A stretch of DNA of 64,000 nt. Origin: Eledone cirrhosa. Lineage: Eukaryota. The notes beneath the pieces are model-generated. The model did no database searches. It saw only the letters and a list, made by a program, of their open reading frames with translations, and had not been told where the DNA came from. The DNA lies in assembly GCA_964016885.1 (NCBI GenBank), contig OZ024740.1, positions 378,138,001 to 378,202,000 on the forward strand, read 5' to 3'. Positions 30,201-33,200 of this stretch are shown here, piece by piece (the stretch's first letter is position 1; each line of letters starts with the position of its first letter). The position numbers and the translations under genes are program-made.

Positions 30201-33200
30201 TTGACACATATTTCTAGCTTAGCAATTGGTTCATCCATTTTTCATGAAATTATTTCATTCTTTTTTTTCTTTCTTTCTTAAAATTACAATTAATGACAAT
30301 GTTGTCTATGCATTTAATTTTTAATGTTTACTGCTGGTTTCATATTAATAAATATACCTATTTCTGAAACTTGTACATCTTCCATATAGAGCAATAGAAC
30401 AGTAAATAATCAATTAATTAATCATGTTATCCATGTAAATGTTTTCATTCTTAATCAGAAGAATAAGAGAGGAAGATAAGAAAGAGAAACAAGATGATTT
30501 CCATATGTTTTTCTTCCTTTCATGAAAAATGGATGAACCAAAAACTATGTTTATATAGAGAAATATTTTTAAAACTTCTTTTTCAAAGACAGTACTATAA
30601 GTCAGTTGATAATTCAGTTGATAATTCAAGATGATACTCATTCAGAGCCATACCTGTGAAAAATTAACATTTTTGAAGTTGCCAGTAGCCCTAACTTTAA
30701 AAATGGTTGTATGCAGTACAGAAAATAGTTTAATTCAGTAATTGTAGTGCAATCTGGCAACAATCAAACATGTAGATGACATATACAAAATGAACTGAAT
30801 TGGTCATAATTGATTTTTTATCACCATCAATTCAGACATATAGTTATATACATATGTAAATATTGTCTTTAAAATAATAGGACAAACGTTTTTTAAAAAG
30901 AGCACTGGAGAATAAAATGAATTAAACAAGAGTGTTGTAGTTTTCTCGAACATTGTGTAAAATGTAGAAAATAGTGTTTTGTTTGAAGGGTATTTTTAAA
31001 AGTTAAAAATATAACAAAGATGTTGGGATGTTACCTTGTACTGCTTTATAGGTCTTAATATTTCGGGATAAAATCCCTTCAAGAGTGACAAAAAAAAAAA
31101 ATATATATATATATATATATATATATGTATACGTACATACATATATGTATACAGACGTACAGTAGTATGTATATATATATGTACGTATGGATTCACCAAA
31201 TATTTATTATAATGCTCAGTGTGTTTGTAAACAAACATCCCGTATTAAGCCGTAGTATCTAGCAACGACCGTTGCTCGTTTGTTCAACACTGACAAAGGA
31301 ACGCTGTACTAGTTTCAAGCTTGTTAGCTATCGTCAGCAACGTATACCTTCCTGCCAGATAGTTGAACGTCCGAAAGTATATACTTTCCTTATGCATATT
31401 AACGGCTGAGTAGCCCAATTTGCATATAGAGTGGGTTAATCGGCCGGGTGCACCGAAAACGATAAACGGAAAAAATGAAACGAAATTTCATTTCCCACTC
31501 TTAGTACGGCTGTTACTTAAATATAAGTATGTATACGTACATACATATATGTATAGACGTACAGTAGTATGTATATATATTTACATACATGCACACACAT
31601 ATATATATGTACGTATGGATTCACCAAACATTTATTATAATGCTCGGTGTGTTTGTAATACATATATGTATGTACGTATACATACTTATATTTAAGTAAC
31701 AGCCGTACTAAGAGTGGGAAATGAAATTTCGTTTCATTTTTTCCGTTTATCGTTTTCGGTGCACCCGGCCGATTAACCCACTCTATATGCAAATTGGGCT
31801 ACTCAGCCGTTAATATGCATAAGGAAAGTATATACTTTCGGACGTTCAACTATCTGGCAGGAAGGTATACGTTGCTGACGATAGCTAACAAGCTTGAAAC
31901 TAGTACAGCGTTCCTTTGTCAGTGTTGAACAAACGAGCAACGGTGGTTGCTAGCCACTACGGCTTAATACGGGATGTTTGTTTACAAACACACCGAGCAT
32001 TATAATAAATGTTTGGTGAATCCATACGTACATATATATATGTGTGCATGTATGTATATATATATATATATACATACTACTGTATGTCTGTATACATATA
32101 TGTATGTATGTATACATACTTATATTTAAGTAACAGCCGTACTAAGAGTGGGAAATTAAATTTTGTTTCATTTTTCCGTATATATATATACAGCTCCAAA
32201 CTAGTTTCTTCCATTAATCTTTTGATTTACCATCCAATTCACATTTTCTATTAATATTAATATATTTTTTCTTACATATTTTGCATCTAGATAAATATTA
32301 TTAATATATAAAATTATAAAATCAATTTTTGTTAATTGAAAATACACATTTGTTATTAGAAAAACAATTTTCCACATAAAGAATACATTTATCTTCACCT
32401 ACACCATATAAATACATACATGTTCACTATCTCTTTTCCTTTTCTTTCTTCATTAATATTTGTATATAAATAGGAATAATGGAGAAATCCAGTTTGCTAT
32501 TTAACTCTAAATGAAAATAGTTTAGTTCAGCTAGCTTATAGATAAGATATTTTTTGTTTTCAATTTTGGATAGTTTTCTTTCTTAGATTAACTTTGTGTT
32601 CTATTTACTAATATTCTCTTTATTCTTGCAGACTAGTTGTAAAAGAGCCATTGAAACCACTGATTTGACTCTCAGTTTTGGTTGGGATAGCAGTGAAGGT
32701 ATTACTTAAAACATATAACAAGTATTTTTCATGAAAAAAACAAAGCAATGCATATTCTAATGTTCAATTTCTAATCTTTATAATTTAACCCTTTTGATAC
32801 CAAACTGCCTGAAACTGCTCCAGTTTCTATGATACAATTCTGATTATTTTGAAATGTTTATATTTATCTAAAAACCTTCCATCTTAATTTTATGTAAAAA
32901 TCTCTAAGTTATATTCCAAACTCCAGCTTAATGAGAAAGTTATTTTACTAAATCCCTCCAAATTCTTGATAATTTTTAAAATTATTTGACAATCATAGGC
33001 AGTGTGTTTCATTAGAAATATGGCAATGGAAGGGTTAACTTAAATTAGTAGCAAATGTTAAGTTTGTTTTATTAAATCAAAATGAAAAATTAAAATTATT
33101 TCTGATGCTGATGTTATTGATAAGTTATTTTGATTTTTAGATATAGTATTTTGTCACTCGTATCTAAATATTTTATTTTATACATAGGAAATTTTTCTTT

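Follow-up and report, generated by a model that had tools for sequence, protein, structure and literature searches.

Metazoan hammerhead ribozymes have been described in two geometries. According to the available text of PMC4209133 (Cervera and de la Pena 2014), the canonical type I form has a 6-bp helix I, a 4-bp helix II and a helix III of 1–2 bp with a palindromic loop, and the minimal form (min-HHR) of Penelope-like elements (PLEs) has a helix II of 7–8 bp, a helix I of 4–5 bp and a G10.1–C11.1 pair. Pairs of motifs 100–700 bp apart on opposite strands are noted in the same text. Two axolotl hammerheads, HHR_Amex1 and HHR_Amex2, cut 6% and 22% as monomers and far better as dimers, and mobilisation of animal retrozymes by PLEs through circles has been proposed (available parts of PMC7229834; Cervera and de la Pena 2020). 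In Xenopus, one of nine retrozyme dimers cut in vitro, as stated in the accessible part of a preprint (Li, Clavereau, Pollet 2026; 10.64898/2026.07.22.740005). Among PLE insertions themselves there are partial tandems and inverted arms; only one end bears a tail, and (TA)n is favoured (available text of PMC8557442; Craig 2021). A purified PLE protein for which a dimer is predicted cleaves both strands and extends them; two adjacent internal sites on the RNA at which reverse transcription starts bracket the tail, and ribozyme cleavage is unnecessary in vitro (available text of PMC11167929; Frangieh 2024).

Here we analysed a 64,000-nt stretch of the Eledone cirrhosa genome (the window), which carries a hammerhead motif at 31861–31917. 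We consider it quite probable that this motif is the hammerhead of a young, abundant, 422–434-nt non-coding retrozyme that was likely inserted by a PLE reverse transcriptase/endonuclease, and that the present copy is, by prediction, inactive through pairing with its mirror-image arm. The features of the locus are as follows.

28525–28623, plus strand: exon of a USP47-like host gene, upstream of the insertion; boundaries approximate
31101–31123, no strand: left (TA)n target remnant, from the sequence
31124–31658, minus strand: left arm, ~1.25 units, read leftwards; outer end of site-B type, 7 nt short of the usual B, no tail
31295–31351, minus strand: second, identical hammerhead (core match 31337–31307), from arm comparison and motif search
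31658–32179, plus strand: right arm, ~1.2 units, period 434; outer end of site-A type, carrying the tail and stopping 4 nt before the usual A
31692–31750, plus strand: 59-nt 'tail' of the family, delimited by the fixed 3′ end sites B (31691) and A (31750); read through here and repeated at 32126–32179
31861–31917, plus strand: type I hammerhead; helix I of 6 bp, internal loop and 5 bp; helix II of 4 bp and U·U; helix III of 1 bp with palindromic loop
31899–31904, plus strand: palindrome ACUAGU; pairing of two ribozymes here could create a 6-bp helix III, duplex −4.8 kcal/mol
31905, plus strand: N17 = A, with predicted cleavage 3′ of A31905 (GUA triplet), from the sequence and standard hammerhead numbering
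32180–32191, no strand: right (TA)n target remnant, from the sequence; no separable target-site duplication
32632–32698, plus strand: next exon of the USP47-like gene, downstream of the intron that contains the insertion

The hammerhead is genuine and has a full type I core. It is spelled CUGACGA-U-AGCU-AACA-AGCU-U-GAAA-CUAG-UA, with the core running from C31875 through UGACG to A31881 and GAAA at 31896–99. Stem I pairs 31869–74 with 31906–11 (6 bp, including one U·G) and is extended, beyond an internal loop (UAU/U), by five pairs between 31861–65 and 31913–17, one of them G·U. Stem II pairs 31883–86 with 31891–94 (A–U, G–C, C–G and U–A) under an AACA loop, and has the mismatch U31882·U31895 at its base. 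A pair-by-pair check returned the core and every stem, loop and mismatch where the preliminary description had placed them. The elements of the type I class (CUGANGA, GAAA, UH, three helices and an open helix I) are all present, helix III reaching only 1 bp in a monomer. The same description had called the motif minimal, which is wrong in the sense given to that word in the available text of PMC4209133: the geometry is that of canonical metazoan type I hammerheads. The motif resembles the min-HHR of metazoan PLEs in its palindromic helix III region and its predicted dimer requirement, but differs from it in having a 4-bp helix II, a 6-bp helix I and U·U for G10.1–C11.1 (PMC4209133, as available). 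Relative to the axolotl ribozymes, it unites in one ribozyme a 1-bp helix III, as in HHR_Amex1, and a U·U, as in HHR_Amex2 (PMC7229834, as available).

The palindrome ACUAGU, also recognised earlier, was confirmed at 31899–31904 and is too short to form helix III alone. In the computed fold, closing helix III in a monomer (an A–U pair) costs 5.4 kcal/mol and has a pair probability of 0.0, and the intermolecular ACUAGU duplex gains a computed 4.8 kcal/mol. Because of these energies, and because the axolotl analogues cut better as dimers, dimer dependence of a hammerhead of this type is likely on modelling grounds; the earlier statement that such hammerheads cut better as dimers agrees with the available text of PMC4209133 and PMC7229834. 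The isolated 68-mer folded no better than shuffled controls (z −0.87). The whole unit folded as a circle gave z −7.0, a value inflated by self-complementary AT repeats and given no weight here. An Rfam scan of the 64,000-nt window returned no family at its gathering score, the Rfam hammerhead models had no match at E ≤ 10 within 30900–32400, and the Rfam microRNA matches, all below gathering score, correspond to an AT-rich inverted repeat.

The motif recurs beyond chance, since its exact 35-nt core occurs 1,859 times in the genome and the control zero times, and a 19-mer just downstream of the core occurs at least 14,388 times genome-wide, which sets the lower bound on copy number. Variation was examined in an alignment of 170 units, drawn from 88 of 162 loci. 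Four or more loci differed at 58 of the 286 columns lying outside the ribozyme, but at none of the 11 core columns. One helix I pair, 31872:31908, has changed on both sides, being U·G in 70 loci, G·U in 11, A–U in 3, U·U in 4 and U–A in 2. Other changes between subfamilies fall at N7, at N17, in loop 2 and at the 10.1/11.1 mismatch (U·U or C·A); the internal loop and loop 2 are kept, except for position 31889. The invariant core and the two-sided change in helix I point to selection on the ribozyme fold.

At the locus itself, the two arms are inverted and divergent: 31171–31554 and 31658–32041 are 99% complementary. Each arm, with a repeat period of 428–434 nt, holds one ribozyme, hence one per strand. 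The insertion lies in an intron of the USP47-like gene, and the exon after 32632–32698 matches USP47 with E 1e-10. When the sense strand was folded over both arms, 31869–31911 paired with 31343–31301 and all ribozyme helix probabilities fell to 0.0; they were also 0.0 in the computed fold of a prefix ending at 31925, just past the ribozyme. The right (plus) arm folded alone retains helices I and II. In the USP47-like pre-mRNA the arms would therefore, by prediction, pair over 384 bp and destroy the ribozyme fold, so that the intronic copy would be masked. A promoter within the right arm could, in this folding model, free the ribozyme, yet it would still be a monomer. Four sequence runs, of unrecorded kind, set against 31000–32400 yielded only the presence of the retrozyme family and loose ends at site A.

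These folds bear on the tandem arrangement that the preliminary description had invoked. It holds for the family, many loci of which are head-to-tail arrays with 422–430-nt spacing; it does not hold for 31861–31917, whose partner is on the minus strand. That both ribozymes of this locus work as a tandem dimer and cut its transcript has in its favour that both copies have an intact core and palindrome. With the copies on opposite strands, however, each transcript holds only one, and the helix probabilities are 0.0 with both arms present, even in the prefix that ends just after the ribozyme, so the tandem-dimer reading fails here and we rate it very improbable.

We next consider the family to which the masked copy belongs. 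Its head-to-tail arrays often contain one minus-to-plus switch, and a young subfamily lacks 8 nt equivalent to window positions 31834–31841, giving a period of 422 nt. The element contains no open reading frame (ORF) of 100 amino acids, and G+C accounts for 139 of 329 positions in the non-microsatellite part of the unit. A stretch at window positions 31787–31794, upstream of the ribozyme in the unit, reads ATGCAAAT, which we take to be an octamer motif; in the circular fold it lies in a hairpin with the similar 31813–31821.

The family thus shows the features by which retrozymes are recognised, namely a 150–450-bp unit with one hammerhead, arranged in head-to-tail arrays; the window locus departs from the tandem layout, with one ribozyme per strand. 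It is also non-coding with a GC content below 50%, as non-LTR retrozymes are, and resembles those of metazoans in its non-coding tandem unit of 150–450 bp, single canonical type I hammerhead, low GC, thousands of copies and co-existence with PLEs (available text of PMC7229834). We class the unit as a non-LTR retrozyme, in whose head-to-tail arrays dimer cleavage is plausible. Two fixed ends, (TA)n targeting and two-armed insertions with one end of each kind, all found here, are not described in PMC7229834 as available, and the words 'inverted', 'microsatellite', 'octopus' and 'cephalopod' are absent from that text.

Insertions end at two fixed sites. At site A (window 31750), 49 loci gave 34 true ends, 33 of which are followed by TA-rich DNA; this tally started from 44 rows flagged as ends, 10 of which proved on inspection to be read-through. 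Near site B (window 31691) there are 33 true stops, 29 at the site and 4 shorter, including the window locus (37 rows, 4 removed as artefacts). Exact junctions number 3,229 at A and 3,884 at B genome-wide, and both sites share T-A-T with the target. Two-armed insertions use one site of each kind: all 23 divergent junction pairs no more than 6 kb apart are A+B (expected fraction 0.49 if independent, p 7e-8), in a sample of 75 A and 100 B junctions from C1, 1–79.8 Mb, in which at least 2 of the 23 pairs look like local duplicates. The window locus obeys this rule, its left end being B-type and its right end A-type. At one locus (L008:1974–2029), two site-A ends face each other across a short (TA)n in a tail-to-tail layout. 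L1-type twin priming was considered as the cause of the inversion and set aside; it fitted the window locus alone, and across loci the outer ends lie at two fixed sites.

The ribozyme cut coincides with neither fixed site, and 5′ ends do not pile up at it. There, 70 of 9,117 matches (0.77%) are 5′ ends, compared with 139 of ~14,400 (~0.97%) ten bases downstream; nine bases upstream there are 32 ends against the 70 at the cut, raw counts without a denominator under which a slight excess at the cut is possible. Three of the 70 cut-site matches (L130, L131 and L134) lack one base at or next to N17, and could be circle ligation scars or plain deletions. A linear, ribozyme-cut monomer was rejected as the main template: the arms exceed one unit and run through the cut site, and ends do not pile up at the cut.

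This footprint parallels that of PLEs. As far as PMC11167929 and PMC8557442 are available, the retrozyme is like PLEs in its partial tandems, inverted 5′-truncated arm, one-end tail and (TA)n targets, and in a hammerhead that lies upstream of two reverse-transcription start sites with no pile-up of ends at the ribozyme cut. All parts of the Penelope-type footprint were found: a tail flanked by two fixed 3′ ends and borne on only one side of inverted structures, together with a (TA)n target. The retrozyme differs from PLEs in having no ORF, a tail of 59 nt rather than 30–40 and a hammerhead that is canonical rather than minimal. Its sites A and B show a short T-A-T match to the target, whereas the start sites in PMC11167929, as available, are reported to lack homology.

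The window and genome also contain a young autonomous PLE. Back-to-back terminal fragments of it lie at 62987–63640, with a tail on the left arm only, and carry hammerhead-like motifs at 63242–63279 (minus) and 63394–63431 (plus). Full copies elsewhere are 4,128 bp long and contain an uninterrupted frame of 1,217 codons (L122), and many are 100% identical. A Pfam search did not recognise this candidate ORF, which is similar to another PLE-type ORF (E 5e-10); we take it to be that of a PLE from this similarity and from what appear to be reverse transcriptase, Cys-linker and endonuclease-like motifs in the frame. We examined 15 two-armed copies of this PLE and resolved 14; all 14 combine one end with a tail and one without. 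Since the retrozyme has two fixed ends 59 nt apart on (TA)n, with one of each per two-armed insertion, and the young PLE obeys the same rule, PLE mobilisation is likely. The fixed ends and the pairing rule are genomic evidence for such mobilisation, with a circle or an uncut multimer as its likely source.

The young PLE is no more than a candidate driver of the retrozyme. At L028:1980–2175, retrozyme site A runs directly into the final 195 nt of the young PLE, no TA being left between them; this chimera may be a template switch or an insertion at the PLE edge. Reading 92 other non-TA site-A junctions by eye revealed no further PLE chimera. The genome holds 10,596 GIY-YIG candidates, of which 150 were scored. 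The retrozyme unit had no homology to PLE loci outside AT repeats (70 + 5 loci) or to 50 GIY-YIG loci and the young PLE, and an ORF combining reverse transcriptase and GIY-YIG was not found in the retrozyme element.

These negative comparisons bear on the possibility that the unit represents a pLTR, the terminal repeat of some autonomous PLE, with arrays that are satellites formed after insertion by unequal crossover. Such an origin has been proposed for vertebrate retrozymes in the preprint 10.64898/2026.07.22.740005, and there are a few long arrays whose units have diverged, such as L048 (4.9% within). Against it, besides the lack of homology to the young PLE or to the 50 GIY-YIG loci compared, a small fraction of the 10,596 candidates, no copy among the loci read is joined to an ORF, and after site A the unit continues into itself; moreover, thousands of dispersed fresh junctions, with multi-unit arms on both sides of the inversion, argue that the repeat itself was retrotransposed. 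We therefore find a pLTR origin improbable. The available text of the preprint and our data are alike in a link to PLEs and in the occurrence of monomers, dimers and multimers; the link there rests on co-occurrence and pLTR homology, and here on an insertion footprint, pLTR homology not having been found. The terms 'tail' and 'target site' are absent from that text.

For PLE-driven retrotransposition of the unit, the following course would account for the data. Head-to-tail arrays are observed at other loci, and the subfamily changes preserve the core and helices. By analogy with the available text of PMC7229834, multimeric array transcripts would be cut through paired ACUAGU helices III and the monomers ligated to circles, in which a lone ribozyme with a 1-bp helix III would stay mostly uncut and so stabilise the circle. 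The observed ends lie at two fixed sites on (TA)n, and the arms, each exceeding one unit, continue past the cut site. A PLE enzyme may cut both strands within (TA)n and use a circular or uncut multimeric RNA as template, starting at site A for one DNA end and at site B for the other; back-to-back joining of the two truncated cDNAs would follow. In the host pre-mRNA, the 384-bp arm duplex is predicted to leave the intron uncut.

Comparison of the arms bears on the template. Opposite arms differ by a mean of 1.2% (92 pairs) and units of different loci by 3.4% (7,717 pairs), a difference to which subfamily structure and the choice of young loci contribute. Only 5 of the 24 two-armed loci have rare variants in common between the arms, and local duplication affects some of these. 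Among nine locus-fixed rare variants, as possible RNA-editing scars, A>G numbers 4 and T>C 0 (p 0.13). A linear, uncut multimer could have served as template with no circle, the ribozyme being weak or protein-needing and taking no part in copying. All end data fit this equally well; in the available text of PMC11167929, hammerhead cleavage is dispensable for insertion in vitro and unprocessed RNA is the main substrate, and our motif unites two weak features found separately in axolotl (PMC7229834, as available). However, the invariant core and two-sided helix I change imply selection on the ribozyme fold, and arrays on both arms, of at most 10 near-identical units (mean difference 0.1% in L037 and 0.5% in L042), arise more easily from one circle. 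Circles have also been demonstrated for coral, mussel and axolotl retrozymes, as stated in the available text of PMC7229834. We judge the linear template rather unlikely, and lean modestly towards a circle, chiefly by analogy with PMC7229834.

A fuller version of the circle model is more tentative still, and we hold it somewhat short of an even chance. A dimeric PLE enzyme on one circular retrozyme RNA would prime both ends of a double-strand break in (TA)n at the two fixed sites, copying around the circle in two genome directions at once; the A+B rule would be its trace, common to the autonomous PLE. The intronic two-armed product would silence its own ribozyme, letting a self-cutting element persist in genes and seeding long double-stranded RNA.

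The ribozyme itself is ordinary, one of many thousands from a described class. Our literature search, with subscription journals and supplements outside its scope, found no publication on this retrozyme family or on tails in retrozymes; nor, with supplements again outside, did it find footprint evidence for PLE mobilisation of retrozymes. The two fixed end sites, their A+B pairing and the absence of a pile-up at the cut would together form a genomic footprint for PLE-driven retrozyme mobilisation, one that names exact RNA sites and a young candidate enzyme. The locus adds an inverted, rather than tandem, pair with predicted self-masking in a host intron, and this layout could explain simply how a host gene tolerates a hammerhead in its intron.

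Several further features accompany the insertion in the window. A third inverted pair, at 61870–62220 inside AT repeats, has hammerhead-like motifs at 61916–61965 (minus) and 62121–62170 (plus), and 80–86% relatives in L091 and L107. LINE-type reverse transcriptase frames lie at 15547–17190, 18396–20391, 54140–56115 and 57600–60074, some split by AT repeats; the two tested contain RVT_1. An (AT)-rich satellite of 3 kb spans 59998–62985, and a two-copy 130-bp repeat lies at 15259–15513. A loose hammerhead pattern also matches 2263–2312 on the minus strand.
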